From Centroscyllium fabricii (Eukaryota), in NCBI GenBank assembly GCA_051313645.2, contig JBNRSN020000194.1, positions 248,001 through 312,000 of the forward strand: DNA of 64,000 bases, given 5' to 3'. Position numbers and translations under genes: made by a program. Of this stretch, positions 24,001 to 48,900 are shown piece by piece; within the stretch, counting starts at the first letter, position 1; the number at the start of each line of letters is the position of its first letter. The notes below the pieces were generated by a model, which did not search any database, was not told where the DNA came from, and was given only the letters and a program-made list of their open reading frames with translations.

Positions 24001-25428
24001 ACATAGCACTCGCCCATGACTGAGAATACTCAGAGCACCCGCCCCTGACTGAATATACTGAGAGCACCCGCCCCTGATTGAGAATACTCGGAGCACCCGC
24101 CCCTGACTGAGAATACTCGGAGCACCCGCCCGTGAGTTAGAATAATCGGAGCACCCGCCCCTGACTGAGGATACTCAGAGCACCCACCCCTGACTGAGAA
24201 TACAGAGAGCACCCGCACCTGACTGAGAATACTGAGAGCACCCGCCCCTGACTGAGAATACTGTGAGCACCCGCCCCTGACTGAGAATACTCGGAGCACC
24301 CACCCCTGACTTGAATACTCGGAGCTCCCGCCCCTGACTCAGAATACTGAGAGCATCCGCACCTGACTGATACTACTCGGAGCACCCGCGCCTGACTGAG
24401 AATACCTGGGGCACCCGCCCATAACTGAGAATACTTGGAGTACCAGCCCCTGACTGAGAATACTCGGAGGACTCGCCTCGGACTGAGAATATTCGGAGCA
24501 CTCGCCCATGACTGAAAATGTTCGGAGCCCCTGCCCCTGACTGAGAATACTCGGAGCACACACCTCTGACTGAGAATACTCAGAGTACCCGCCCCTGACT
24601 CAGAATACTGAGTGCACCCGTCCCTGACTGAGAATACTTGGAGCACCCGCACCTGACTGAGAATACTGAGAGCACTCGCCCCTGACTGAGAATACTGAGA
24701 GCACCCGCCCATGACTGAGAATACTCAGAGCACTCGCCTCTGACTGAGAATACTCTGAGTACCCGCCCCTGACTGAGAATACTTGGAGCACCCACCCCTG
24801 ACTAAGAATACCTGGAGCACCCGCCACTGACTGAGAATACTTGGAGCACCCACCTCTGACTAAGAATACCTGGAGCACCCGCCACTGACTGAGAATCCTC
24901 GGAGCACCCACCCCTGACTGAGAATACTCGGAGCACCCGCCCCTGACTTGAATACTCGGAGCTCCCGCCTCTGACTCAGAATACTGAGAGCATCCGCACC
25001 TGACTGATACTACTCGGAGCACCCGCGCCTAACTGAGAAAACCTGGGGCACCCGGCGTGACTGAGAATACTCGGAGCACCCGCCCCTGACTGAGAATACT
25101 CGGAGCTCCTGCCCCTGTATGAGTATACTCGGAGCACCCGCCCCTGACTGAGAATACTCGGAGCACACACACCCCTGACTGAGAATACTTGGAGCACCCG
25201 CCCCTGACTGAGAATATTCGGAGCACTCGCCCCTGACTGATAATACTGAGAGCACCCGCCCCTGACTGAGGATACTCAGAGCACCCACCCCTGACTGAGA
25301 ATACTGAGTGCACCCGCACCTGACTGAGAATACTGAGAGCACCCGCCCCTGACTGAGAATACTGAGAGCACCCGCCCCAGACTGAGAATACTGAGAGCAC
25401 CCGCCACTGACTGAGAATACTGTGAGCA
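1..25428. repeat. 29-bp tandem satellite array, left block
   Basis: Head-to-tail copies of GAGCACCCGCCCCTGACTGAGAATACTCG with recurring diagnostic variants such as TACCTGGGGCACCCGGCG and CCCCTTACTGAGAATACTCGGATCACAC. Confidence 0.98.
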
Positions 25429-25707
25429 TGTGGTAACCCATAATGTTATGTATACCACTGTATTCTTGTTGTCAATTATTGGCTGTGTATATGTGTTATA
25501 CAGCCCTGTAACACTGTTGGGAGCCAGGTCAGCCACACCTCTAACTCCTCCCCCAGGTGAGGCCTTTATAGGTGGAGACTGACTGAGGCTCCCTCATTCC
25601 TGCTTAGATGTTCGTTCGGAGGGTAGCTCCTAAGTAAGTGATTAAAAGCCTATAGTTACGGTAACTACTCGTTGAGTCTTTTAATCTGAGATATTGACGA
25701 TACGTCA
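25429..25707 (+). repeat. 5' LTR of the gypsy element
   Basis: TGTGGTAACC...TACGTCA; TTTATA at 25565-25570, ATTAAA at 25641-25646; 10 mismatches versus 30029-30307 by manual count. Confidence 0.96.
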
Positions 25708-25732
25708 ATTTTAATCACTTAAAAGTTTTAAA

Positions 25733-28700
25733 ATGGAGAGCGGTGCAGTAAAGCTAGAAAAGCTGGTCATCAGTCCACAGGACCCTGCCGCCGCCACCAT
25801 GTTCGAACACTGGTTCGGTCTCCTGGAGGCCTATATGGACGCCGCCATAGCTACAACCGACGGGAACAAGCTACAGGTTCTCCGGTCCAGGATCTCCAGC
25901 CGAGTATTCTCCCTCATCCGAGACGCCAAAACCTACCCAGGGGCAGTGGAAAAGCTGAGGAAATGCTACGAGCGCCCGGTCCATTCGGTCTATGCTAGAC
26001 ATGTGCTCGAGACCAGACCACAACTACCGGGTGAGACTAATGATCAATTTGAGCAAGCGCTCCAGGCCCTGGTACGGGTCTGTGGCTGCCAAGCCCGGAC
26101 AGCAGAAGAGGAGGCGAACCTCCTCGTCCGAGCGCATATGTAACTGGACTAAGGTGCGTGGAGGCCCGCCAGAGGCTGCTGGAAAAAGACACTTTGTCCC
26201 TCGAAGACGCGATTGCTATATCTAACTCCGTGGAAGGAGCACGCAAAAAACTACAAGCTTACAGTGGCACAAACCCGCAGGCCGACGACATGTGGGCCAC
26301 GCCACAACGGACCCAGGCCTGGGCAGCGCCACAATGGGTCGAGACTCCCACGATGGCTGCGACAGCCACAGAAGACAAACGCTGCTACTTCTGTAGCCAG
26401 GGACTGCACCCGAGAGCGTGATGCCCAGCAAGGACCGCGACCTGTGAGAGGTGCGCCAAGAAGGGACATTATGCAAAGGCTTGCAGATCAGCACCAACAG
26501 CACCCAACTCCAGGTACAACAGCGCAGCCTGTGAAAGCGACAGACCTTATGTAAGCTGCAATAGCAGCGTGATGCAGCGACGGTCCGGGGGTAGAAGGGA
26601 AGCGCCCCCAGCTCCCACGCCGATGCGGCAAAGGCCGGCCAAGCGCGACCCCCCAATGCCAGCAGCAGACCCAATGCGGCCGGCTGCGTGCGAATCACGG
26701 GCACCGCCAACCCGACCACCGCGGCTCGCTGCGTGCGAACCACGGGCACCGCCAACCCAGTCACCACGGCCCGCTGCGTGCGAACCACGGGCGCTGCCAG
26801 CATGCTCACAGCGGTCAGCCGCGTGCGAACCACGGGCGCCGCCATCTCGACCCCAGCGGCCCAGCATGTGCGACCCGTCGGCGCCGCCATTTTGTCCCCA
26901 GGGCCCCACCATGTGCGAGCCAGGGGCGCCGCCATTTTGTCTACAGGGCCCCACCATGTGCGAGCCAGGGGCGACGCCATTTTGTCTACAGGGCCCCACC
27001 ATGTGCGAGCCAGGGGCGCCGCCATTTTGTATACAGCCCCAACCAGCAGGGGGCCCACACACACAGAAGCACACGTCTGCTCCAGCCATACCTAGAGTGT
27101 ACCAGGACAGGCCACACACCCTGTCTAACTCGATAATGCCTATCAAAATAAACGGCTATACTACTAATTGCCTATTTGACACTGGAAGCACGGAGAGCTT
27201 TGTGCACCCCGATACAGTGCAGCGCTGCGGACTGCAGATCCTGCCCACAAACTACCAAGTCTCCCTTGCTTCAAAGTCCCACACCGCGGACGTCACCGGC
27301 TACTGCTCCGTCACGCTCACAGTCAAGGGGTGCGTGTACCGTAATTTTAAATTGTACACCCTCCAGCAGTTGTGCGCCCCAGCCTTACTAGGTCTGGATT
27401 TCCAGTGCCACCTCAAGAGCGTGACAATGGATTTCGGCGGGACTTTGCCCCCCCTCACCGTCAGTAGCCGGGACAGTCCCTTCCCAAAGCGGAGCCCGGC
27501 CTGCGGCCTCTCCACCCTGAAAATCGACCCCCCCTCACTGTTCGCCAACCTCGACCCCAAGTGCAAACCTATTGCTACCAAGAGTCGGCGGTACAGTGTG
27601 GGGGATCGCACGTTTATCAGGTCGGAGGTCGGGCGGATGCTGAAGGAGGGGATAATTGAAGCCAGCACCAGCCCCTGGCGCGCCCAGGTTATTGTGGTAA
27701 AGTCTGGCGAGAAACAACGGCTGGTGATCAATTACAGCCAGACCATCAACCGCTACACCGGGCTCGACGCCTACCCCCATCCCCGCATCTCGGAAATGGT
27801 CAATCAGATCGCCCAGTATAAGGTGTTCTCCATGATCGACCTTAAGTCAGCGTATCACCAACTCCCAATCCGGAAAGCCGACCGCCCCTACACCGCCTTC
27901 GAGGCGAACAGTCGGCTCTACCACTTCCTCCGGGTCCCCTTCGGCGTGCCCAATGGAGTGTCAGTGTTCCAGTGGGAGATGGACCGCATGGTTGACCAGA
28001 ACGAGTTGCAGGCCACCTTCCCCTACCTGGACAACGTGACCATCTGCGGCCACGACCAACAGGACCACGATGCCAATCTGGCCAAATTTCTCGACACGGC
28101 GGATAAGCTGGACCTCACGTATAACAAAGACAAATGTGTCTTTAATACAGACCGGTTCGCCATCCTCGGATACGTGGTGGAGAACGGAGTCCTCGGCCCC
28201 GACCCACAGCGTATGCGACCCCTACAAGAACTGCCCCTACCTCAAGCCTTGAGGAGATGCCTAGGATTTTTCTCCTATTACGCACAATGGGTCCCACAAT
28301 TCGTGGACAAGGCTAGACCACTCCTCAAGGCTGCCATTTACCCCCTTTCGGTAGAAGCCCAAACGGCATTCGCCCGGATAAAGGAAGACATCATCAAGGC
28401 TACCATGCTCGCTGTTGATGAATCCATTCCCTTCCAGGTGGAGAGCGACGCTTCGGACTTCGCCCTTGCTGCCATCCTGAATCAGGCAGGCAGGCCCGTA
28501 GCGTTTTTCTCCCGCACGCTACAGGGACCCGAAACTCACCACTCAGCAGTGGAAAAGGAGGCCCAGGCCATCGTGGAGGCCATGCGCTACTGGCATCATT
28601 ACCTGGCCGGTAAGCGTTTTACCCTTCTCACCGACCAACGGTCGGTGGCGTTTATGTTTAATAATAAACAGTAGGGTAAGATCAAGAATGATAAGATCCT

Positions 28701-30027
28701 GCGGTGGCGGATCGAACTCCCGACTTACGAGTATGACATTCTTTACCGACCAGGCAAACTCAATGAACCCCCGGACGCACTGTCCAGGGGAACGTGCGCC
28801 AGTGCCCAGCTAGACCAGCTGAAGGACCTCCACGACCGCCTTTGCCACCCGGGTGTCACCAGACTCGCCCACTTCATTAGATCCCGTAGCCTCCCCTACT
28901 CCATCACGGAGATCAAGGCTATGACCCGAGAGTGCCCTGTTTGCGCCGAGTGCAAACCCCAATTTTTCCGGCCAGACACGGTGCACCTCATCAAGGCCAC
29001 CCGCCCCTTTGAACGTCTCAGCATGGACTTCAAAGGCCCCCTCCCCACCACCGACCGCAACTCATACTTCCTCACGGTCGTAGATGAGTTCTCCCGTTTC
29101 CCCTTCACCTTCCCCTGCGCAGATATGACAAGCGCAACGGTGATAAAACACTTCACCACGCTGTTTGCCATCTTCGGTCTCCCTAGCTACATCCATAGCG
29201 ACCGGGGGTCATCGTTCATGAGCGATGAACTGCGTCAGTTTCTGCTCCAGAAAGGGGTTGCCACGAGCAGAACGACCAGTTATAACCCCCGGGGGAACGG
29301 CCAGGTAGAAAGGGAGAATAGCATCATCTGGAAGGCGGTCACCCTGGCCCTGAAGTCCAGAGGCCTTCCAGTGGCCCATTGGCAGGCAGTGCTCCCAGAC
29401 ACGCTGCATTCTATACGCTCTCTCCTATGTACGGCCACTATCGCAACTCCTCATGATTTGATTTTTGCTTTTCCCAGGAAGTCAACTTCGGGGACAGCTC
29501 TTCTTCCATGGCTCACGACATCGGGGCTGGTCTTCCTTAGAAGACACGTTCGGGGCCACAAGGCCGACCCCCTGGTGGACAAGGTGCAGCTCCTGCATGC
29601 GAACATGCAATACGCATTCGTGCAGTTCCCGGACGGGCGTGAGGACACCGTATCTATCAGGGACCTGGCGCCCGCAGGTAGCACCGCAGAGCCCCTGGTC
29701 GGTCAGCAGGCCGCCCAGCCACAGTATCCAGAACACCCCCTACACCTACAATGGCCTCCGAGTTTTCCAGAGCCCCAGCTGTGGCCACTCCAGGACCACC
29801 ACTCCGATAGCTCGGACCAGCGGAGACCATCGCCACCTGAAACCAGGGCACCGGGGCAACGGTCACCACCAGCGGACTCGAGCAGCACGGACCATGAGGG
29901 GTCATCACCGGAACTCCGGCGGTCCTCCAGGCTGGCACGACCACCGGATAAGTTGATATTGAACTGCTCGGTCCATTCACCCGGGTCCATTCACCCCCCT
30001 GAACTTAAATTTTTCAAGAAGGGGTGA
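25733..30027 (+). pseudogene. gag-pol: Disrupted gag-pol polyprotein (Gag with two Cys/His knuckles, aspartic protease, RT, RNase H, integrase)
   Basis: One frameshift near 26131, then a single frame with in-frame stops at 26419-26421 and 28672-28674. Motifs: CYFCSQGLHPRA*C and CERCAKKGHYAKAC, LFDTGSTES, DLKSAYHQL, VPFG, YLDN, ESDASDF/EKEA/TDQRS, LHDRLCHPG..CPVC, MDFKGP/SDRG/QVERE. Confidence 0.93.
26675..27035 (+). repeat. 45-bp (15-aa) in-frame tandem repeat, about 8 units, between the Gag knuckles and the protease
   Basis: Units in 45-bp register at 26683, 26728, 26773, 26818, and near-identical units at 26901, 26946, 26991; translation AACEPRAPP.../PTMCEPGAPPFCLQG. Confidence 0.9.
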
Positions 30028-30028
30028 A
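30016..30028 (+). promoter_or_regulatory. Polypurine tract of the gypsy element
   Basis: AAGAAGGGGTGAA directly before the TG of the 3' LTR. Confidence 0.85.
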
Positions 30029-30307
30029 TGTGGTAACCCATAATGTTATGTATACCACTGTATTCTTGTTGCCAATATTTGGCTGAGTATATGTGCTACA
30101 CAGCCCTGTAACACTGTCGGGAGCCAGGTCAGCCACACCTCTAACTCCTCCCCCAGGTGAGGCCTTTATAAGTGGAGACTGACTGAGGCTCCCTCATTCC
30201 TGCTTAGATGCTCGTTCGGAGGGTAGCTCCTAAGTAAGTGATTAAAAGCCTATAGTTACGGTAACTACTCGTTGAGTCTTTTAATCCGAGATATTGACGA
30301 TACGTCA
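30029..30307 (+). repeat. 3' LTR of the gypsy element
   Basis: Direct repeat of 25429-25707 at offset 4600, followed by TSD GAGCA. Confidence 0.96.
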
Positions 30308-34900: not shown

Positions 34901-37340
34901 ACCCGCCACTGACTGAGAATACTCGGAGCACCCGCCCCTGACTGATACTACTCGGAGCACCCGCCGCTGACTGAGAATACCTGGGGCACCCGTCGTGACT
35001 GAGAATAGTCGGAGCTCCCACCCATGACTGAGTATACTCGGAGCACCAGCCCCTGACTGAGAATATTCGGAGCTCCCGCCCCTGACTGAGTATACTCGGA
35101 GCACCCGCCCCTGACTGAGAATATTCGGAGCACACACCCCTAACTGAGAATACTTGGAGCACCCGACCCTGATTGAGAATATTCGGAGCACTCGCCCCTG
35201 ACTGAGAATACTGAGAGCACCCGCCCCTGACTGAGGATATTCAGAGCACCCACCCCTGACTGAGAATGCTGAGAGAACCCGCACCTGACTGAGAATACTG
35301 AGAGCACCCGCCCCTGATGGAGAATAGTGAGAGCGCCCGCCCCTGACTGAGAAAACTGTGAGCACCCGAACCTGACTGAGAATACACGGAGCACACGCCA
35401 CTGACTGAGAATACTCCAAGCTCCCGCCCCTGACTCAGAATATGAGAGCACCCGCCCCTGACAAAAAATAATCGGAGTACCCGCCCCTGACTGAGAATTG
35501 TCGGAGCACCCGCCCCTGACTGATACTACTCGGAGAACCCGCCCCTGACTGAGAATACCTGGGGCACCCTGCGTGACTGAGAATACTCGAAGCTCCCACC
35601 CCTGACTGAGTATACTCGGATCACCCGCCCCTGACTGAGAATACTTGGAGCTCCCGCCCCTGACTGAGTATACTCGGAGCACCCGCCCCTGTCTGAGAAT
35701 ATTCGGAGCACACACCCCTGACTGAGAATACTTGGAGCAACCGCCCCTGAATGAGAATATTAAGAGCACTCGCCCCTGACTGAGAATACTGAGAGCACCC
35801 GCCCCAGACTGAGGATACTCAGAGCACCTACCCTTGACTGAGAATGCTGAGAGCACCCGCACCTGACTGAGAATAATGAGAGCACCTGCCCCTGTTTGAG
35901 AATTCTGAGAGCACCCGCCCCGACTGAGAATACTGTGAGCACCCGCCCCTGACTGAGAATATTCGGAGCACACGCCCCTGACTGAGAATATTCCAGGCTC
36001 CCGCCCCTGACTCAGAATACTGAGAGCACCTGCCCCTGACTCAGAAAACTCGGAGCACCCGCCACTGACTGAGAATACTGAGAGCACCCGCCCCTGACTG
36101 AGAATACAGAGAGCTCCCGCCCATGACTGAGAATACTTGGAGCACCCACACCTGACTGAGAATACTCAGAGCACTCGCCCCTGACTGAGAATACTGAGAG
36201 CACCCGCCCCTGACTGAGAATACTCAGAGCACTCGCCTCTGACTGAGAATACTCGGAGCACTCGCCCCTGACAGAGGATACCCGGAGTACCCGCCCCTGA
36301 CTCAGAATATTGAGAGCACCCGCCCCTGACTCAAAATACCAAGAGCACCCGCCCCTGACTGAGAATACTCAGAGCACTCGCCCCTAACTGAGAGTACTCG
36401 GAGCATGCACCACTGAATGAGAATACTTGGAGCACCCACCCCTGAATGAGAATACTCGGAGCACACGCCCCTGACTGAGAATACTCGGAGCTCCCGACCC
36501 TGACTCAGAATACTGAGAGCACCCACCCCTGACTGAGAATACTGAGAGCACTCGCCCCTGACTGAGAATATTCGGAGCACCCGCCCCTGACTGAGAATAC
36601 TCAGAGCACCCGCCCATGACTGAGAATATTCGGAGCACCCACCGCTGACTGAGAATAATTGGAGCACCCACCCCTGAATGAGAATACTCGGAGAACCCGC
36701 CCCTGACTGAGAATACTCAGAGCAATCGTCCCGACTTAGAATACTCGGAGCACACACCCCTTACTGAGAATGCTCGGTTCACACACCCGTGACTGAGAAT
36801 ACTCGGAGCACCCGTCCCTGACTGAGAATACTCGGAGCACTCGCCCCTGACAGAGAATACTCGGGGCACTCGCCACTGACTCAGAATAATCAGAGCACCC
36901 GCCCCTGACTGAGAATACTTGGAGCACCCAACCCTGACTGAGAATAGTCGGGGCACTCGCCCCTGACTCAGAATACTCAGAGCACCCGCCCCTGACTGAG
37001 AATACTGAGAGCACCCGCCCCTGACTGAGAATACTCAGAGCACCCGCCCCTGACTGAGAATACTCAGAGCACCCGCCCCTGACTGAGTATACTGAGAGCA
37101 CCCGCCCCTGACTGAGAATACTCGGATCACCCGCCCCTGACTGAGAATACTCGGATTACCCGCCCCTGACTTAGAATAATCGGAGCACTCGTCCCTGACT
37201 GAGAATACTCGGAGTACATGCCCCTGACTGATACTACTCGCAGCACCCGCCCCTTACTCAGAATGACTTTGGCACCCGGCGTGACTGAGAATATTCGGTG
37301 CTCCCACCCCTGACTGAGTATACTCAGAGCACCCGCCCCT
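31997..37340. repeat. 29-bp satellite, containing a 464-bp tandem duplication (33497-33960 / 33961-34424)
   Basis: Same monomer; rare variants (CACCCATCCC, AGTACATGCC, ATGACTTTGGCACC) recur at offset 464 = 16 x 29. Confidence 0.96.
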
Positions 37341-38770
37341 TGTAAGATTTGAGCTGATGTTTCCCGGATCCAGAACTACTATCAACACTTTTATAACACA
37401 GAACTGCAAGCAACATGCTTTTGTTAAAACCGATAATGTGGGGGCACCCTGGGTACGGAGATGTGGCTCTGTACCAGGGAAAAAGGACTATAGCCAGAGA
37501 CTTTTAAAAGAAAACCAGACACAAGCAGGGGCCACAAAATGGCTTCGCCGACCACGTGATCAGCCTGGCAGAGTGAAACTAAAACAGCCCCCCCCACACA
37601 CATTTTTCTGCAAACTCATGACCAGATAGACTTTGGATATTGGTCATGAATAGCCCACATAACGAGATCGAGTCCCCAGACTGGGAGGCGCCGGTGTCCA
37701 GCAGATGGACAAGGGGCACCGAGGTAACCTCGTCAAGTAAAACAAAAGGCCCATAGAAACCCGAGGGCAGGTAATGGGAAAAAGCTTATGCACAGAGATC
37801 GCTTAACAGAAAAAACGTTTACAGGTGGTCAGGAGATTATCGGTCTGTTAAGCGACCATGAGAACAGAAAAGAACAGATCTAACCTCACTTAAAGACAAA
37901 AGGACACTATAGATCTGGCACGCAGATAAGCGCGAGGTGCGGGGGTATAACGGCCAGGGTTTTAAACTGAAGGCAGAAGGAACAGGCTCGGAGAGGGAGA
38001 GAGAGGTTCGGACAGAGGGGAACTGATGAGCTAGAAAGCAAACAGACTGACGAACTGGAGAACGAGAGCTCAAGCAAAGAGCTGATGGCAGTTGATAGCC
38101 AGAAAGAGTAACAGTGTCGTTTTAAAGTGAGAGCTGGAGAGAAGCAGCAGAGGTCTGAACCAGAAAGAAAGGTGCACTCGATTTAGAGATCAGCTAGAAA
38201 GTGCTTGCCTGCATCAGAAGTCGGTGCCAGGAAGCCAGGAAGGCGGAAGAGAGAGAGAGAGAGAGAGCCCCTTCCACAGCTACCTAATCGAAGGACGAAG
38301 GAGGTGCAACACAACGAACCCCGAACCCCCCCAGTAAACATAGCCCATGGTGAGTATGGTGTTCCGCTTCTGCACGTCTGGACATAGGATAGTGTAGGAA
38401 GTGGAGGGTGGGTGTCGTGGAAGCATATTGGGGTGTAGCTGTTTAATGTTTGCCCAATTTTACGTTGTATCGTACCCTCTCCATCCTGTTTTTAATTGAT
38501 TAACGTTTGGTTCTACTGTTGTAATAGTTGAATGTGTAATAAAGGACTGTGTTTTAAACATCACATCTCTGGTCTCTTGGAACTCTGTTCTGGCAGGAAT
38601 TACCTACACTATCACAACTCCTGTACATAAGCCCAGTGTCGAGAACCGTAGGGGGGAGCGTTTCAGACCGCTCACAGGGACCCGGTGTGCGAGGCCTGGT
38701 CGCGGGACCAAGGCAAGGCGCAGGGACTCTAGGTCGAGCCTGGAGAAGGCCGGCTGCCAAACCCCTTACA
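37341..38770 (+). repeat. 5' LTR (1430 bp)
   Basis: Terminal inverted TGTAAG/CTTACA; TATAA 37946-37950; (GA)n run near 38248-38267; AATAAA 38538-38543. Confidence 0.97.
38347..38355 (+). promoter_or_regulatory. Candidate start codon plus splice donor, ATG|GTGAGT, in the LTR
   Basis: Near-consensus U1 donor directly after an ATG; in phase with a candidate acceptor at 41714. Confidence 0.65.
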
Positions 38771-38775
38771 GATTT

Positions 38776-38793
38776 TGGCGACCCAGATGGGAC
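38776..38793 (+). promoter_or_regulatory. Primer-binding site, tRNA-Arg (CCG-type)
   Basis: TGGCGACCCAGATGGGAC, 5 nt after the LTR, is the reverse complement of GTCCCATCTGGGTCGCCA, which I recall as the 3' end of a vertebrate tRNA-Arg(CCG); not checked against a database. Confidence 0.8.
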
Positions 38794-40541
38794 ACTGGCA
38801 ACAGGATGATAGTGTGCCAGAAACGGTTGTAAGAACTAGGGATATGATGGATGAACGCATGGCCGACTATGTGTTCAGCAAGGTCAATCTGACCAAGTCA
38901 TGGATGTGTGAGTTGCTGGAAGACAAGCGCCCACTGGATGCAGCGATCCGGTGGACGTCCAGCAAAGCACACAAGAAAGTGGTAGAAAAGGCCGTCTGGC
39001 TGTCGTGCTACAAGAAGCAGGTCCAGCTCCTGGACCGTGTAGTGGCAGCGCAGGCAGCCCAGATAGGGAACCTCCGTGAGGAGGTGAGGGAAAAGGCTGA
39101 GGGAGGGCTCCAGTTGATCGAGGCCCTGGACTCCTCGAACAAGGAGCGCCGGGTTTTGGTCAACCGATATGAGGCCAAGGTTGAACTGTTGGGGTGCCAG
39201 ATCACTGACGCTAAGCTCAGTGAGGGCGCAATTAGGCAGCGGTGTGCCGGCCTAGACCAACAGTTGGAGGCCACAGGGGAGACTCTCCGGGGGGTTAAAG
39301 CAGCCTATAAAATGGCTTTGGAGGATCGGTCCGAAGGGGCCGATCACGGGGCTTGTAGGGAGGAGATCGAAAGCCTGCGCAGCGCCTTAGATAGGGCTAG
39401 TGGGTTGGTCTGCCTTATGAACCCCGCAGCGGGAACATCACTGGCAGCGGCAAGGGTTCCAGCAAGGGGTCCGTGCATGCCCGTGGTGGCTTCGGCCCCC
39501 ACGTATCACGATCCCCCCAGCTATGAGGCTTCCTGGGAGAAGGGGGGCGCTGGGGAGAGTGAGCAGGGGGGGGGACCGGCCAGGGAACCGGCGCAGGCAC
39601 CGATGTGTCCATTGCTGGAGACCAGGCGGGGACCCGACGCAGCGAACGGGGATCCCGGGCCTGTCCAAAGTCAGATTATAGTGCCCCACAGCGCCCAGCA
39701 GTTGAGGTCCATGGTCGGGCAAGTCAAGAAGCTGTCCGAATCGGGGGACCCTTCACTGCATTTTCAGGAGGTTGAGCAGACCGCCGCAATCAATGGTTGC
39801 GACGAAGGGGAGCAGGCGAGGATGCTATTGTTCTCCCTGGACTACTCACTCCTTCAGTGCCTCAGTGATGAGAGCAAACGGGGTACCAGAACCTACGAAC
39901 AGTTAAGGGAAGAGGTTCTGGAGGTTTTAGGCACGGACGATGAGGGTCCATTTGCCCGCTTGGGGAAAACTCTCCAGATGGAGGGAGAACCTCCGAGGGT
40001 TTTTGCGGCGAGACTGTGGCCGGTCTACCAACGTAGCTGCCCGCAGGTCCCGAACCGGGATGCCCTGGTCGGGAATGTTAGGGCGCAGTGGCTTCGGTGC
40101 TTGGTAACGAACAGCCTAGCAGCTGTCCGGGAGCAGGCGAAAGCCTGGTTCGACCCAACGAACACCACGGAGGACGAGGTTTTGGACCGCCTCACCGTGG
40201 GGTATCGGAACACCCGGAGCACCGCCACCAAGTCGGTCAAGGGGAAGGTGCACGTAGCGGAGGCCGTTACATCGGCCCCGAAGGAATGGCGTCAGGAGGG
40301 CAACCCTGCCGCACAGTCTAAGTGTTTTAGGTGCGGTAAGGTGGGTCACTGGAGGAAAGACTGCAGGGTTTTCCCCAAGGAGGTTAGGGCCAACCCCGCT
40401 CCGCGCGCCGAGATAGCCGTTAAGCCCGAAACGTTGGAGTCAATGATCGAGGTGATGCGGTCCCTCATGGAAGCACAAGGGAAGGTTGCAGTCGCCACCG
40501 GCTCCCCGGGTGCGGGGGGGACACCGGACATTCCCCAGTGA
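38787..40541 (+). CDS. gag: Gag-like polyprotein (N-terminal coiled coil, PPxY late motif, capsid-like helical region, CCHC knuckle)
   Basis: Intact ORF of about 584 aa from the first ATG (inside the PBS; alternative ATG at 38844); PPSY at 39513-39524; CFRCGKVGHWRKDC at 40323-40364. Confidence 0.88.
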   Translation: MGHWQQDDSVPETVVRTRDMMDERMADYVFSKVNLTKSWMCELLEDKRPLDAAIRWTSSKAHKKVVEKAVWLSCYKKQVQLLDRVVAAQAAQIGNLREEVREKAEGGLQLIEALDSSNKERRVLVNRYEAKVELLGCQITDAKLSEGAIRQRCAGLDQQLEATGETLRGVKAAYKMALEDRSEGADHGACREEIESLRSALDRASGLVCLMNPAAGTSLAAARVPARGPCMPVVASAPTYHDPPSYEASWEKGGAGESEQGGGPAREPAQAPMCPLLETRRGPDAANGDPGPVQSQIIVPHSAQQLRSMVGQVKKLSESGDPSLHFQEVEQTAAINGCDEGEQARMLLFSLDYSLLQCLSDESKRGTRTYEQLREEVLEVLGTDDEGPFARLGKTLQMEGEPPRVFAARLWPVYQRSCPQVPNRDALVGNVRAQWLRCLVTNSLAAVREQAKAWFDPTNTTEDEVLDRLTVGYRNTRSTATKSVKGKVHVAEAVTSAPKEWRQEGNPAAQSKCFRCGKVGHWRKDCRVFPKEVRANPAPRAEIAVKPETLESMIEVMRSLMEAQGKVAVATGSPGAGGTPDIPQ

Positions 40542-41495
40542 CTGGAGCCCGCGCAGCCTGTCAACCCGGTTCCCTCGGAAAGACGTGCAGAGGAAGAGAC
40601 CTCCGGTAATTTGGAGGACTTCCTGGGGTGCCAGGTTGCAGGAGCTCAGGTCGTGGAACGGGCTTTAAGGAAAGAGAATGACAGGCTAGCGGCAAAAGCT
40701 AGCAGTTTAGAGGAAGAACTCAAGGTTTTTAAAATGCTTCACAGCAGGTGCAAGCTGTTTAGCCTGGAGGCAAAAACCCAGGCAGCTGAAGTGAAAAGGG
40801 AGTTTAAAACCTCAAAGGCTGCAACAGGTCAGCGGCAGCAGGTAAAACAGGGGTCAGTCACAGGGGCAAGCCCTGTGGATAGAGAATCACAGCCAAAATT
40901 GTGGAAGGTCACGCAGGTGGGTAAAGCTGCCTGCGTGAGGGGAAAGGAGGAAGACGTTTGCCAGCAATGGAGGGCGTCCCAGTTTGGATGGGACTCAGAC
41001 GAAGACGAGCCTGATCAGCTCGGTCTGGGGCTGAATCTCATGACGGAGGAGTGGGAGTCGGAGGGGGATGACGAGAGCATCCTCGACTCAAGCACCAGGG
41101 AGGCGGGGGTAGCGGGCGGAGACTCACCACCTGTCACAGACAGGGTGAGGTCGGAAGCCGCGGATATACCCAGCCCCAAGGGGGTAGTGCTGGATGAGGA
41201 AGGGCCGGGGTCGGCAGCTGCGGGGGTCACCCGAGCTGCGGCACGGCGGGAACCTGTCCTCAACCGGGCTGCCCAGGGGGCCGTGCCTGAGGTGACTCTC
41301 CGTAGGTCCAGCAGGATACCTCAACTGAGGAAGCTTTGGCCGGAATTGTACGGGACCCCAGCGACAGGCAGTTTGTCGGGTTGGAGAAAGGAAGATGGTC
41401 ACTGGCAGGCAGCCACAGGCTGCGACACTTCAAAGGATGCAGGCAGCGCGGCCAAGCCACAGGCAGCGGCGCGCTGCAGCCTGGATCAGGATTAG
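40542..41495 (+). CDS. ORF2, unknown 317-aa protein in frame with gag behind a single UGA (occupies the pol position)
   Basis: Same frame as gag with no stop from 40542 to the TAG at 41493-41495; heptad-rich segment, acidic tract (WDSDEDEPD, EEWESEGDDES), LRRSSR motif; no pol catalytic motifs. Confidence 0.6.
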   Translation: MEPAQPVNPVPSERRAEEETSGNLEDFLGCQVAGAQVVERALRKENDRLAAKASSLEEELKVFKMLHSRCKLFSLEAKTQAAEVKREFKTSKAATGQRQQVKQGSVTGASPVDRESQPKLWKVTQVGKAACVRGKEEDVCQQWRASQFGWDSDEDEPDQLGLGLNLMTEEWESEGDDESILDSSTREAGVAGGDSPPVTDRVRSEAADIPSPKGVVLDEEGPGSAAAGVTRAAARREPVLNRAAQGAVPEVTLRRSSRIPQLRKLWPELYGTPATGSLSGWRKEDGHWQAATGCDTSKDAGSAAKPQAAARCSLDQD

Positions 41496-41714
41496 CCTGG
41501 CCGCCTTGGAAGGGCGGCGTTGTATGATAGGCTAGGTAGTTTTAAGAAGTTTAGTGGTAAGTTAAGTTATATTTTTACTGGGTTAGGTAAAAGGGGCAAT
41601 GTGTCCAGCGTGCAGATGCGGGGTACGGGCTGGGGTCATCAGACCCAAGCATGGGTCTTTAACACAGCCAAGCGCTCTTGGAGAGGCTGGCTATACCAAC
41701 GTTATCTGTTTCAG

Positions 41715-44087
41715 GAACCAAACGAGGCACTAAGATGGGGAATCATCTTCCTGGCGATCGGATGCGGGTGGGCCTATCGGGGCCGCACCCAGGACATCGT
41801 GGTATACGGATGTTCGGGAAGCACCGCGCCTACCGCGACCGTTGGGACGGGACAACGGACAACCGAAGGAGCTGCCGTTTTCTTCCACCAGGGGCGATGG
41901 CCAGGGTGGCTGGGATCAAACGCTTCTGAGTATCTCGGCACCCCAGGATTTTTCTTCAGGGACACTGAGTTATTGTGCCCAAAGGTGAAGATCATCGCCC
42001 AGAAGACCAGCGTCACGGCCGGCAAGAGGATTTGCCTGAGGTGCACCGGAAAGGTCGACACCCGGTTGAGGTGGTGGCTACGTAAAACCAGCCGGACCAT
42101 GGCCAACTCAACCGTGAATTGGGAAAAGCTGGACAACAACACTCACAGGACAGTCTTTGGGACTAATGAAAGTTTGAGTGTCTGTTGGGACAAGTGGTGG
42201 GAGCCTGATGAGGGAATTTATGTGTGTAGGTGGGGTTCCAGGTATTTGTGCCCCACAGGGAACAGCATATTTTTCCACCAGCAGTGGCAAGATGGTGGTA
42301 AGGGGATGAGGTGGGATGTTAGCTCACAAGCCTGTGGGGTCCCATTTTCCCCGAGCCCAGTTAACGCCACTGAACTCGTCACCCGACCACGCACAACACC
42401 TCCCACACCGAGGCGGGCAGCAGCACAGGAGGGTGGGTGCCCCAAGACTACACGGGGGCCCGAGAATGGCCTGGTATTGATACCAACAGATCAGGTATTA
42501 TACCAGGGGGTGCACTACACGGTGGCCTCGGTGATTTTAAACCTCACCGAGGTAAGGTTGCCGGAGTGGTGCCCCAAGGAGACCGAAAGGTTATATCAGG
42601 TGCTGCTGGCAAATATGTACAGGCAGTTTTACGAACTTGACCTGGCCAGTGTAGACAAGGCAAGCCTGTACCGCCAAGGGCCAGAGACATGGGGCCAAAC
42701 GGGGAGACAAAAGAGGGGTGTAGTGAATGATGTGTTCACGGGCTTTAACACCGGAGCCTCTGTGGTCAACGCTCTCGACACCATGGAGCTGCAGACCCAG
42801 ATAAACGGTTTAAAGTCGCAGTTGAAGGACATCCTCACGGAGGAGAACAATGTCGTCGGGTCGGAGCTCCATGAGGACCAGGCGATGACACTGCACCTGC
42901 GCGAGATAATCGCGTAATTAGAAAGACACGCGAGCACGGTGAACGCTCTGATCAAGGAAGATCGGAACGCTTCTGACCAGGCTGCGCAGAACGAGGTGTG
43001 CGTTCTGTACGGGGCGTGGTTGCTGGGCGAGGGCCGCAGCAACCTTGAGGACCTGAAGCAAGGGTTGGTCCCGTCCTGGATCAGTAACAAACACCTCCAA
43101 GCACTGCAGCCTTTTCAGAACGCGCTTACACCGTGTCAGCTCAGGTTGGCGTCAGAGGCGTACCCTGTTCCCATTGACTGTGGGCGTTCTAATTACACGG
43201 TCATGGGAGTGGTGGTACGGATGCCGGTGTTGGGCAAGACGGCAAGGCCCGCACCGGTATACAGGGTGGAGAACATCGGAGTCATTCAGGGGGGAGTACA
43301 CGTTCGCTACGCAGAGGTCCCACCGTATGTTGTCCGCTGGGAGCAGTTGATGACAGGTACAGACCTCTCGGGGTGCCGGAGCAGGGGAGCACACATAATA
43401 TTGTGTCCCCAGCACTTGAATGTCTTGCGGGTACAGCAGTGTGGGTTCAGGGCTGTTGGCGCGAAGCCTATGAATTGCACTATGGAGGCGATGGCACAGG
43501 ACCATGTCCCTCCACAGGTGGCATACATAGGGGGTGGTACTTACTGTATTACCACTGCAGCGCAACACTACCGACACGGGCAGCATGGCCTATGTCCGGT
43601 GAGTGACAGCAGCTTCTGTTTTAAACCACAGGCAGAGGTTCAAGTGGCACAGCTGCGAATCGTCCCCATACCTGAACCCTCCACGGTTCACATCAGTGTA
43701 AAGGAGAATTTCACCAACCTGCAGCACTTTGTGGCGCATTTTGGGTATGCCATACCCCCTCTCCCCGAACACCTCACAACACTTTTTAAAGCAGTTGCCG
43801 TATCGCAAAAGCATTTTTACACCCTGGAACAGAAGACAGATAAGATTGGGGCAGACATATTGGAGATAGTGGTTCCCCCGTGGTGGGACCTGTTCAATAA
43901 TATAGAAGTCCCATCTTGGGTTAGAATTGCATCACACGTGTTAGTGGTGGTGCAAGCTTTTATAGTGTTCTATTTAATATGTGGACAGTGCAGAGGGAGA
44001 CAGCGGCTTCGCAGCCGGATAGGCAGAGGGGAATGGAGGGACCGGTACGTCAGGGCGGACGAACCGGAGGCAGAGACAAGCTGCTGA
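41715..44087 (+). pseudogene. env: Envelope glycoprotein: signal peptide, Ig-like domain, Pro/Thr linker, furin site, long F1-like fusion subunit, TM; one in-frame TAA
   Basis: Track ORFs 41520-42917 and 42939-44087 share one frame, split by TAA at 42915-42917; hydrophobic WGIIFLAIGCGWAY; RQKR at 42705-42716 then GVVNDVFTGFNTGASVVNAL and heptads; C-terminal VLVVVQAFIVFYLIC; several N-x-S/T sequons. Confidence 0.87.
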
Positions 44088-44496
44088 CATGGGGAAGAAG
44101 TCACCTCCAATTTTACCTCTCTGTGAGAGAGTCTCATTGAAAACACTGTATATATATTTAAGTTTAAGTTTTGAAGGTATTTTCTTTTTGTGGTGTATGT
44201 ATTGATCTTTGTGCCCCAATAAAACGATCACCGACAGGAGGACGGTTGGCGGACGGCATCAGCCGAGGAAAAGGGTGTAAGTTTTGAAAGACGGGCACAA
44301 ATCTGGGGAATGTTTATGTGTATATAGTGACCCGGGAAGGCAGTAATGTATAGGTCGGCCTGAAAGATGGGGACTGTACGTTAAGTACTTGGGCGCTAGT
44401 TTAGGTAAAATAGTGGGGGTCTGGACGTGGACAACCGGGAAAACATAGCTCAACCGTAATTTAATTTGATTGCGACACATTGGGGTGTGTGGAATC

Positions 44497-44509: not shown

Positions 44510-45936
44510 TGTAAGATTTGAGCTGATGTTTCCCGGATCCAGAACTACTATCAACACTTTTATAACACAGAACTGCAAGCAACATGCTTTTGTTAAAACC
44601 GATAATGTGGGGGCACCCTGGGTACGGAGATGTGGCTCTGTACCAGGGAAAAAGGACTATAGCCAGAGACTTTTAAAAGAAAACCAGACGCAAGCAGGGG
44701 CCACAAAATGGCTTCGCCGACCACGTGATCAGCCTGGCAGAGTGAAACTAAAACAGCCCCCACACACATTTTTCTGCAAACTCATGACCAGATAGACTTT
44801 GGATATTGGTCATGAATAGCCCACATAACGAGATCGAGTCCCCAGACTGGGAGGCGCCGGTGTCCAGCAGATGGACAAGGGGCACCGAGGTAACCTCGTC
44901 AAGTAAAACAAAAGGCCCATAGAAACCCGAGGGCAGGTAATGGGAAAAAGCTTATGCACAGAGATCGCTTAACAGAAAAAACGTTTACAGGTGGTCAGGA
45001 GATTATCGGTCTGTTAAGCGACCATGAGAACAGAAAAGAACAGATCTAACCTCACTTAAAGACAAAAGGACACTATAGATCTGGCACGCAGATAAGCGCG
45101 AGGTGCGGGGGTATAACGGCCAGGGTTTTAAACTGAAGGCAGAAGGAACAGGCTCGGAGAGGGAGAGAGAGGTTCGGACAGAGGGGAACTGATGAGCTAG
45201 AAAGCAAACAGACTGACGAACTGGAGAACGAGAGCTCAAGCAAAGAGCTGATGGCAGTTGATAGCCAGAAAGAGTAACAGTGTCGTTTTAAAGTGAGAGC
45301 TGGAGAGAAGCAGCAGAGGTCTGAACCAGAAAGAAAGGTGCACTCGATTTAGAGATCAGCTAGAAAGTGCTTGCCTGCATCAGAAGTCGGTGCCAGGAAG
45401 CCAGGAAGGCGGAAGAGAGAGAGAGAGAGAGAGCCCCTTCCACAGCTACCTAATCGAAGGACGAAGGAGGTGCAACACAACGAACCCCGAACCCCCCCAG
45501 TAAACATAGCCCATGGTGAGTATGGTGTTCCGCTTCTGCACGTCTGGACATAGGATAGTGTAGGAAGTGGAGGGTGGGTGTCGTGGAAGCATATTGGGGT
45601 GTAGCTGTTTAATGTTTGCCCAATTTTACGTTGTATCGTACCCTCTCCATCCTGTTTTTAATTGATTAACGTTTGGTTCTACTGTTGTAATAGTTGAATG
45701 TGTAATAAAGGACTGTGTTTTAAACATCACATCTCTGGTCTCTTGGAACTCTGTTCTGGCAGGAATTACCTACACTATCACAACTCCTGTACATAAGCCC
45801 AGTGTCGAGAACCGTAGGGGGGAGCGTTTCGGACCGCTCACAGGGACCCGGTGTGCGAGGCCTGGTCGCGGGACCAAGGCAAGGCGCAGGGACTCTAGGT
45901 CGAGCCTGGAGAAGGCCGGCTGCCAAACCCCTTACA
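44510..45936 (+). repeat. 3' LTR (1427 bp)
   Basis: Direct repeat of 37341-38770; I found 2 substitutions and a 3-bp shorter C run. Confidence 0.97.
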
Positions 45937-48900
45937 CCCTGACTGAGAATACTCAGAGCTCCCGCCACTGACTGAGTATACTCGGAGCACTCGCCCCTGA
46001 CTGAGAATACTTGGAGCACCCGCCCCTGACTAAGAATATTCGGAGCTCTCGCCCCTGACTGTTGATACAGAGAGCACCCGACCCTGACTTAGGATACTCA
46101 GAGCACCCACCCCTGACTGAGAATACTGAGAGCACCCGCACCTGACTGAGCATACTGAGAGCCCACGCCCCTGACTGAGAATACTGAGAGCACTCGCCCC
46201 TGACTGAGAACACTGAGAGCACCCACCCCTGACTGAGAATAGTGTGAGCACCCGCCCCTGACTGAAAATACTCTGAGCACACGCCCCTGACTGAGAATAC
46301 TTAGAACACCAGCCACTGACTGACAATACTGAGAGCACCCGCCCCGACTGAGAATACTCGGAGCACCCACCCCTGACTGAGAATACTCGGAGCACCCGCC
46401 ACTGATTGAGAATTTTCGGAGCACCCGCCCCTGACTCAGAATACTCGGAGCACACAGCCCTGACTGAGATTACTCGGAGCACTCACCCCTGACTGAGAAT
46501 ACTGGGAGCACACACCCCTTACTGAGATTGCTCGGATCACACACCCGTGACTGAGAATACTCGGAGCACCCATCCCTGACTGAGAATACTCGGGGCACTC
46601 GCCCCTGACTCAGAATAATCAGAGCACTCGCCCCTGACTGAGAACACTCGGAGCACCCGCCCCTGACTGAGAATACTGAGAGCACCAGTCCCTGACTGAG
46701 AATTCTGAGAGCACCCGCCCCTGACAGAGAATACCCGGAGCACCCGCCCCTGACTAAGAATAGTGAGAGCACCCGCCCCTGACTGAGAATACTCGGACCA
46801 CCCTCCCCTGACTGAGAATGGTTGGAGCACCAGCCCCTGACTGAGAATATACGGAGTACCCACCACTGACTGAGAATTCTCAGAGCACCCGCCCCTGACT
46901 GAAAATACACGGAGTACCCGCCCCTGACTGAGAATACTTGGAGTACCTGCCCCTGACTGAGTATACTCGGAGCACTCGCCCCTGACTGAGAATACTCGGA
47001 GCACACACCCCTGACGGAGAATACTTGGAGCACCTGCCCCTGACTGAGAATATTCGGAGCACTCGCCCCTGACTGTTGATACGGAGAGCACCCGACCCTG
47101 ACTTAGGATATTCAGAGCACCCACCCCTGACTGAGAATACTGAGAGCACCCGCACCTGACTGAGAATACTCGGAGTACCCGCCCCTGATTGAGAATACTC
47201 GGACCACCCGCCCCTGACTGAGAATACACGGAGTACCCACCACTGACTGAGAATTCTCAGAGCACCCGCCCCTGACTGAAAATACACGGAGTACCCGCCC
47301 CTGACTGAGAATACTTGGAGTACCTGCCCCTGACTGAGAATACTCGGAGCACTCGCCCCTGACTGAGAATACTCAATGCACCCGCACCTGACTGAGAATA
47401 CTCGGAGCACCTGCTGCTGAATGAGAATACTCGGAGCACCCGCGCCTTACTGAGCATATTCAAAGCACCCACCTCTGACGGAGAATACTGTGAGTACCCG
47501 CCTCTGACTGAGAATACTCGGGGCACCCGCCCCTGACTGAGATTACTCGGAGCACCCGCCCCTGACTGAGAATACTCAATGCACCTGCCACTGACTTAGG
47601 ATACTGAGAGCACCCGCCCCTGACTGAGAATACTTGGAGTACCCGCCCCTGACTAAGGATACTAGGAGCACCCGCCCCTGACTGAGAATACTCGGAGCAC
47701 CCGCCCCTGAATGAGATTACTCGGAGCACCCGCCCCTGACTGAGAATACTCGGAGCACCCGCCACCGACTGAGAATATTGAGAGCACCCGCCCCTGACTG
47801 AGATTACTCGGAGCACCCGTCCCTGACTGAGAATACTGAGAGCACACACCCCTGACTGAGAATACTCAGAGCACCCGCCCCTGACTGAGAATACTCAGAG
47901 CACCACCCCCTGACTGAGAATATTTGGAGTACCAGCCCCTAACTGAGAATACTCGGAGCACCCACCCCTGACTGAGAATATTCAGAGCACCCACACCTGA
48001 CTGAGAATACTCGGAGAACCCACCCCTGACTGAGAATACTCAGAGCACTCGCCCCTGACTGCGAATACTTGGTGTACCCGCCCCTGACTCAGAATACTTG
48101 GAGTACCCGCCCCTGACTGAGTATACTCAGGGCACCTGTCACTGACTGAAAATACTAGGAGTACCCGCCCCTGACTGAGAATACTCAGAGCACCTGACCA
48201 TGACTGAGAATACTAGGAGCACCCGCCCCTGATTGAGAATTCTGAGAGCACCCGCCCATGACTGAGAATACTGTGAGCACCCGCCCCTGACTGAGAATAC
48301 TCGGAGCACATGCCCCTGACTGAGAATACGCCAAGCTCCCGCCCCTGACTCAGAATACTGAGAGCTTCCGCCCCTGACTGAGAATACTGAGAGCACCCGC
48401 CCCTGAATGAGAATAGTTGGAGCACCCGCACCTGACTGAGAATACTCAGAGCACTCTCCCCTGACTGAGAATACTGAGATCACCCGCCCCTGACTGAGAA
48501 TATTCGGAGCACCCACCGCTGACTGAGAATACTTGGAGCACCTACCCCTGAATGAGAATACTCAGAGCACCCGCCCCTGACTGAGACTACTCAGAGCACT
48601 CGCCCCGACTGAGAATACTCGGAGCACCCAACCCTGACTGAGAATACTCGGAGCCCTCGCTCCTGACTGAGAATACTGGGAGCACACACACCTTACTGAG
48701 AATGCTCGGATCACACACCCGTGACTGAGCATACTCGGAGCACCCGTCCCTGACTGAGAATACTCGGAATACTCGCCCCTGACAGAGAATACTCGGGGCA
48801 CTCGCCCCTGACTCAGAATAATCAGAGCACCCGCTCCTGACTGAGAATACTTGGAGCACCCACCCCTGACTGAGAATAGTCGGGGCACTCGCCCCTGACT

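Follow-up and report, generated by a model that had tools for sequence, protein, structure and literature searches.

An LTR exon coding for methionine alone as the probable source of the Env start in a loki-like element of Centroscyllium fabricii

How is translation of an env gene started when its main exon carries no start codon ahead of the signal peptide? This question is raised by a young 8.6-kb long terminal repeat (LTR) element that lies in a stretch of 64,000 nucleotides from Centroscyllium fabricii (assembly GCA_051313645.2, contig JBNRSN020000194.1, positions 248,001 to 312,000; hereafter the window). A preliminary description of the locus had proposed that the LTR donates the Env start codon through splicing. 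We consider this probable: an ATG in the 5' LTR, joined to an acceptor ending at 41714, would be the start of Env, in a model of the junction that is drawn here from DNA alone. On anatomy, an upstream exon would supply an in-phase start, and the main exon of env is without one of its own. The features around the proposed junction are the following (positions are those of the window).

37946..37951, plus strand: TATA-like box, 401 nt upstream of the LTR ATG, a candidate promoter
38341..38349, plus strand: in-frame stop, CCC and ATG, the last being the sole coding codon of the putative exon 1
38350..38355, plus strand: putative major splice donor GTGAGT, at a break from A-rich to G/T-rich composition
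38538..38543, plus strand: LTR polyadenylation signal (AATAAA), located 188 nt 3' of the donor
41616..41618, plus strand: rival in-frame ATG, with C at -3 and C at +4, immediately 3' of a weak CAG
41702..41714, plus strand: putative env splice acceptor, a pyrimidine tract plus CAG, with an AG-free zone of 27 nt
41715..41774, plus strand: signal-peptide-like start of the env exon, a short polar stretch and then a hydrophobic core
41715..44087, plus strand: env, with an N-terminal beta domain, an RQKR site, a core of paramyxovirus F type and a C-terminal helix

The LTR donor and the env acceptor

The coordinates given in the preliminary description hold at both ends of the proposed intron. The ATG at 38347-38349 stands directly before GTGAGT at 38350-38355. 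With the reading frame closed by a stop at 38341, Met is the only residue that an exon ending at 38349 could encode. This donor is located in the 5' LTR and is unaltered in the 3' LTR (45513). Scored with a frequency matrix, it ranks first among the 79 GT sites of the LTR plus primer-binding site and third among the 443 of the LTR plus internal region, and an ATG|GT of equal score was found in 1.0% of 5000 simulated Markov-1 sequences of LTR length; the donor and acceptor matrices used throughout hold textbook frequencies and are not those of MaxEntScan, and this is a post hoc test. In 4 out of 4 sub-windows tried, base composition changes most sharply at a cut before 38348, with A-rich, T-poor sequence giving way to G/T-rich sequence. 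The gain from this best single cut was reached by 0 of 1000 shuffles in each of the 4, although the shuffles disregard local repeats, so that the position of the cut carries more weight than the P value.

At the other end, GAA begins at 41715, straight after the AG at 41713-41714 and exactly on an env codon boundary, as had been described, and the predicted intron (38350-41714) measures 3365 nt. The acceptor scores 3.45, which makes it the top one of 35 AG sites in 41400-41800 and the seventh of 517 overall. No in-frame ATG occurs after 41715 until 42099. The hydrophobic core behind the short polar stretch of the env exon has a 9-residue hydropathy peak of 2.6, and there are small-residue cleavage candidates at residues 16-20; the N-terminal signal peptide that the preliminary description thought plausible is a candidate one on these features. 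A strong donor, GTAAGT at 41557-41562 (score 5.72), lies between ORF2 (open reading frame 2) and env and has no in-phase upstream ATG.

Taken together as a mechanism, transcription would begin in the 5' LTR, upstream of 38347, and in a subgenomic env mRNA the acceptor at 41714 would be linked to an LTR exon whose last codon is ATG (donor 38350). This splice would remove the LTR polyadenylation signal, U5, the primer-binding site, gag and ORF2. Initiation at 38347 would follow scanning over two short upstream frames (ATGs at 38026 and 38085, of 2 and 8 codons), which lie between the TATA-like box and 38347, and the signal peptide would then be cleaved from Env. In loki-like elements the acceptor position would be old, env usually having its own ATG just downstream, and the lineage of this element with its skate relatives would lack that ATG and depend on the one in the LTR.

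The same Met exon could serve gag too, via the LTR end, where an AG after pyrimidines at 38770-38772 shares the phase of gag and scores weakly (0.39, rank 27 of 517). A better-scoring acceptor within the LTR, in the 38596-38809 region, scores 2.97, has an AG-free zone of 50 nt and lies 3' of AATAAA; splicing to it would drop the polyadenylation signal and yield a frame of 70 codons that runs through U5 and the primer-binding site.

Relatives and rival explanations

The closest Env proteins are skate models, 75-79% identical, followed by sharks and then by amphibians, an order that points to a cartilaginous fish as the probable host; a homologue search among longer proteins found none, and neither did searches for related loci in viral contigs and metagenome contigs. 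Six relatives span the env start, P0039 having been excluded for want of an anchor motif. Skate models P0005 and P0016 are gap-free and in register from the acceptor-equivalent position onwards and lack a Met ahead of the hydrophobic core, and skate P0002 begins at a Met within that core. The residues of P0016 just upstream of that position match two other frames of the window (RLAIP and ICF, with anchors 21 versus 16 nt apart) in a comparison that is the back-translation of one automated model from a decayed copy. Its upstream DNA is thus kept and its frame lost, which fits the end of an intron and does not fit a 33-residue leader.

Of the 23 env entries in the available part of the lokiretrovirus supplement (PMC7947760), 22 place a Met of their own ahead of the hydrophobic stretch, and the other is a fragment. 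These 23 entries were read by eye: 9 begin at ATG, 2 are given with no DNA around the Met, 1 is the fragment and 11 are informative, and in 10 of these 11 a pyrimidine tract with YAG lies 0-4 nt upstream of the signal-peptide ATG. Since shark relatives and published lokiretroviruses have a Met of their own right behind the acceptor, a Met outsourced to the LTR looks derived. By comparison of these sequences, an acceptor at the start of the signal peptide looks like the family norm, and an absent Met behind it like the derived state.

Contigs from 4 of 7 runs were compared with the element and span all of it, including the LTR start; of 1024 letter differences 40 are listed, and of 97 indels 12. 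The 38349-41715 junction is not among the 15 of 21 contig joints listed; the contigs may be DNA, and the result is neutral either way. Contigs from organism A (3 in X1 and 1 in X7) fit as far as 38358 and part from the element immediately beyond it, a break that weakly suggests conservation of the donor. A joint that skips 1308 nt of env (42464-43773), with ends other than GT-AG, is present in 3 out of 3 organism A runs and probably reflects a deleted subfamily in DNA. In Pristiophorus, models P0003, P0004 and P0010 join env pieces of this family to host gene models of Niban-like, cadherin-like and zinc-finger type, which may be either exonisation or an annotation artefact.

Several points weigh against an Env start in the LTR. 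The 38349-41715 junction and the start of transcription are both predictions from genomic sequence. A higher-scoring acceptor exists at 41891, downstream of the signal peptide, and the 40 nt next to the proposed acceptor contain no textbook branch point, the nearest YTNAY being 52 nt off. The ATG at 38347 has C at -3, and the ATGs at 38026 and 38085 precede it if the TATA-like box sets the start. Among the relatives, P0005 has Ser and not Glu at the junction position; the skate evidence consists of automated models of decayed copies, back-translated in place of DNA. Own Met codons before the core are found in 3 of the 6 relatives, P0010 (sawshark), P0023 (whale shark) and P0013, and the Met-less env start is not, on these sequences, family-wide. 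Finally, env of this copy is interrupted by a TAA at 42915-42917, 400 codons past the acceptor. The arrangement should accordingly be read as the design of the family and not as a working locus, as the stop at 42915 would truncate Env.

Other explanations of the same sites have to be weighed with these points. Env might start at ATG 41616, which is in the env frame 33 codons ahead of 41715 and would add 32 residues beyond the lone Met, as the preliminary description had correctly noted. An mRNA spliced to the CAG at 41614-41615 or to 41586 would then encode a 33-residue leader and the LTR ATG would be a bystander. The CAG|ATG at 41615/41616 mimics the lokiretrovirus pattern, the frame is open from 41496, and a divergent X1 contig is gap-free over 41611-41711 (about 90%, with flanks that do not fit), which also counts against the LTR start, although a kept 41611-41711 suits intronic signals or a 33-codon extension alike. 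We nevertheless hold this start to be unlikely: the CAG before 41616 scores 0.04 versus 3.45 for 41714, the ATG context has C at both -3 and +4, the leader frame is not kept in skate P0016, and the 38350 donor would just add the LTR ATG in frame to the 41616 form too. A still smaller chance is given to the acceptor at 41714 being joined to an in-phase donor in gag or ORF2 (39084, 40341, 40842, 40917 or 41145), so that the N-terminus of Env would come from Gag or ORF2, as in idefix-type endogenous retroviruses, for which the accessible text of PMC12992720 provides a precedent. Each of these donors has an upstream ATG in its phase, which tells against the LTR start, and the one at 39084 scores 5.78 versus 5.90 for the LTR donor. 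They would, however, place 35-518 residues before the hydrophobic core, an in-phase GTG is expected anyway from valine codons, and no composition break was seen at these donors, where none was sought.

We rate equally low the explanation that the LTR donor mainly suppresses 5'-LTR polyadenylation via U1, in a foamy-like manner, active copies using their own env ATG and this copy being damaged near the 5' end of env. The donor does lie 188 nt 5' of AATAAA, which is the foamy arrangement in the consulted portion of PMC3694450; shark relatives have their own Met, the main X3 contig differs from 41521-41888 by 4 letters and 1 gap, and this copy is already broken elsewhere. Yet the two Met-less skate models are gap-free over the stretch, so that the state is shared and not specific to one copy, and suppression by U1 is compatible with donation of the ATG. 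That both sites are chance matches, in a non-autonomous element whose env is not expressed, appears very improbable. The motif search was post hoc, and within the element 2 sites outscore the donor and 6 the acceptor; against this, the best donor of the LTR, an ATG, the phase, the composition break and a family-typical acceptor position all coincide, and env is 75-79% identical to the skate copies. In all, donation of the Env start by the LTR, as first proposed, draws on site strength, phase, the composition break and the lack of an own Met before the core, together with Met-less skate relatives and an upstream frame that is not kept. The splice itself stays a predicted one, comparable arrangements are already known (PMC12992720, in the part available), and the env copy is broken at 42915.

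The host element and its Env protein

Most of the window consists of a 29-bp satellite, into which the element is inserted. Its remaining features are as follows.

37337..37340, plus strand: left copy of a 4-bp target-site duplication, in the 29-bp satellite; right copy at 45937-45940
37341..38770, plus strand: 5' LTR, with TG...CA ends
38733..40541, plus strand: gag frame, first ATG at 38787, within the putative intron
38777..38794, plus strand: primer-binding site
40542..41495, plus strand: ORF2, 317 codons, in frame after the gag stop, within the putative intron
44510..45936, plus strand: 3' LTR, containing an identical ATG|GTGAGT at 45513-45521

The element with the premature TAA in env has LTRs that are 99.65% identical (2 substitutions and one 3-nt indel). 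The primer-binding site at 38777..38794 presumably matches the 3' end of tRNA-Arg, and no tRNA gene for comparison was found within the 64-kb window. The first gag ATG (38787-38789) lies inside the primer-binding site, the next one, at 38847, having a stronger context. The gag frame contains a zinc knuckle (E 6e-6), and Gag gave Atlas feature matches of 0.90-0.93 to Retrotrans_gag/Ty3_capsid clusters. ORF2 has no Pfam match to a pol domain, and between the LTRs there is no pol frame, so that the element has no reverse transcriptase. Across 38733-44087, gag, ORF2 and env share one frame with single stops between them. Lokiretrovirus gag is backed by TGA-CTA-G in the available part of the supplement (PMC7947760), and the gag stop context here, TGA-CTG-G, is like it; this suggests readthrough of the gag stop into ORF2, which may occupy the place of pol. 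A second AATAAA (44218-44223), downstream of the env stop and upstream of the 3' LTR, could terminate the env mRNA ahead of the 3'-LTR copy of the donor.

Env was folded with X at the stop at 42915 and an alignment of 28 sequences. The top Foldseek matches of the resulting model (predicted local distance difference test, pLDDT, 59.7; 32.9 when folded from the single sequence only) are all F proteins of paramyxoviruses and pneumoviruses, with a best E of 1.6e-11. The match to PF00523 (Pfam) is weak and below the cut-off (E 0.016), and a profile search of PDB sequences with Env found no F protein. Numbered from 41715, RQKR lies at 331-334, and long helices are present, the C-terminal one at 734-770. 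The front half of Env gave no usable Atlas match. A beta-rich, possibly Ig-like domain (41990-42320) precedes the F core; shark and amphibian Env relatives give weak Ig/V-set matches, unlike the published teleost lokiretrovirus Env. The element is thus a pol-less, loki-like LTR-gag-ORF2-env insertion with an Env of paramyxovirus F type.

A second LTR element, gypsy-like and with 280-bp LTRs that are 96% identical, is located at 25428-30307 in the same satellite, and its pol is interrupted by a stop at 28672-28674.

Known systems and significance

Among freely accessible papers, bioRxiv supplements excepted, none was found that deals with the splicing of loki-like env. The snakehead retrovirus, attributed to Hart et al. 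1996, is said to have an env initiation codon upstream of both gag and the common splice donor, and a tRNA-Arg primer; its upstream exon reportedly encodes a leader or signal peptide and not Met alone, in a complete complex retrovirus. The Gag of this virus has a coiled coil and one zinc finger (PMC2717909; this and the other sources below as far as available). In Drosophila, splicing joins env of insect endogenous retroviruses (iERVs) to a short exon that lies upstream of gag and codes for a peptide, to an AU dinucleotide, or to a site inside gag itself (PMC12992720). The env-F transcripts of ZAM/Beagle and springer (Senti et al., PMC12992720) share with our model an upstream exon that supplies the env start; these are insect Metaviridae with a baculovirus-type F, and their junctions were mapped experimentally. 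Unlike in ZAM and springer, the whole ATG is here inside the LTR, the element is from a vertebrate and the junction is deduced from DNA. In the foamy virus LTR (PMC3694450) the major donor is likewise upstream of the LTR polyadenylation signal, but it is tied to U1-dependent control of polyadenylation and not to an env start. Translation of bovine leukaemia virus G4 (PMC1839114) starts from a CUG codon within the R region of the 5' LTR, which is spliced to a distant frame; G4 is an accessory protein, unlike Env.

With the lokiretroviruses (Wang and Han, PMC7947760) the element shares an Env of paramyxovirus F type, an RXKR site and an acceptor-like YAG at the start of the putative signal peptide; its Gag may have a Ty3-like capsid, the lokiretrovirus capsid being like those of MuLV and Ty3. 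The similarity to F, RXKR, a coiled coil and a transmembrane segment, by which lokiretrovirus Env is recognised, are all found here, and the signal peptide of lokiretrovirus Env has a candidate counterpart in the hydrophobic start of the env exon. The lokiretrovirus genome is LTR-gag-pol-env with protease, reverse transcriptase, tether, RNase H and integrase, and by reverse transcriptase phylogeny lokiretroviruses are sister to retroviruses (PMC7947760), whereas this element lacks pol and its Env carries an additional domain, some 230 residues long, ahead of the F core. Its relatives come from cartilaginous fishes, which are absent from the lokiretrovirus host list in the part of PMC7947760 available. 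The element is at most a non-autonomous relative of lokiretroviruses. The string 'splic' has 0 occurrences in the main text of PMC7947760. ATG|GTRAG was considered as a general feature of lokiretrovirus LTRs and is not supported as one: of at least 2 plus 13 matches in the accessible supplement just one is at an LTR start, and line breaks may hide more.

A start of env in an upstream exon is therefore known in kind; what would be new is an LTR exon with a whole ATG that codes for Met only, in a vertebrate loki-like lineage. We tentatively suggest, as a possibility with the odds against it, that the start codon of env was relocated to the LTR in a cartilaginous-fish loki-like lineage, so that one site in R would act as initiator, major donor and U1 silencer of 5' polyadenylation, with the exon perhaps feeding gag via 38770-38771 and sister lineages keeping their own ATG. 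If the LTR does donate the start, env of this family would not be annotatable from the open reading frame alone: the skate models at NCBI would be starting inside the signal peptide, or they join env with exons unrelated to it, and screens that require a frame with an N-terminal signal peptide (10.64898/2026.05.06.723177, as far as its available text describes) would miss such genes or start them wrongly. The LTR start would also provide the first concrete expression model for the F-type env of loki-like elements, and a case of start-codon relocation in which the ancestral state survives in sister lineages and the switch could be dated. Finally, the LTRs and solo LTRs of such elements would offer host genes a ready promoter together with an in-phase Met exon.

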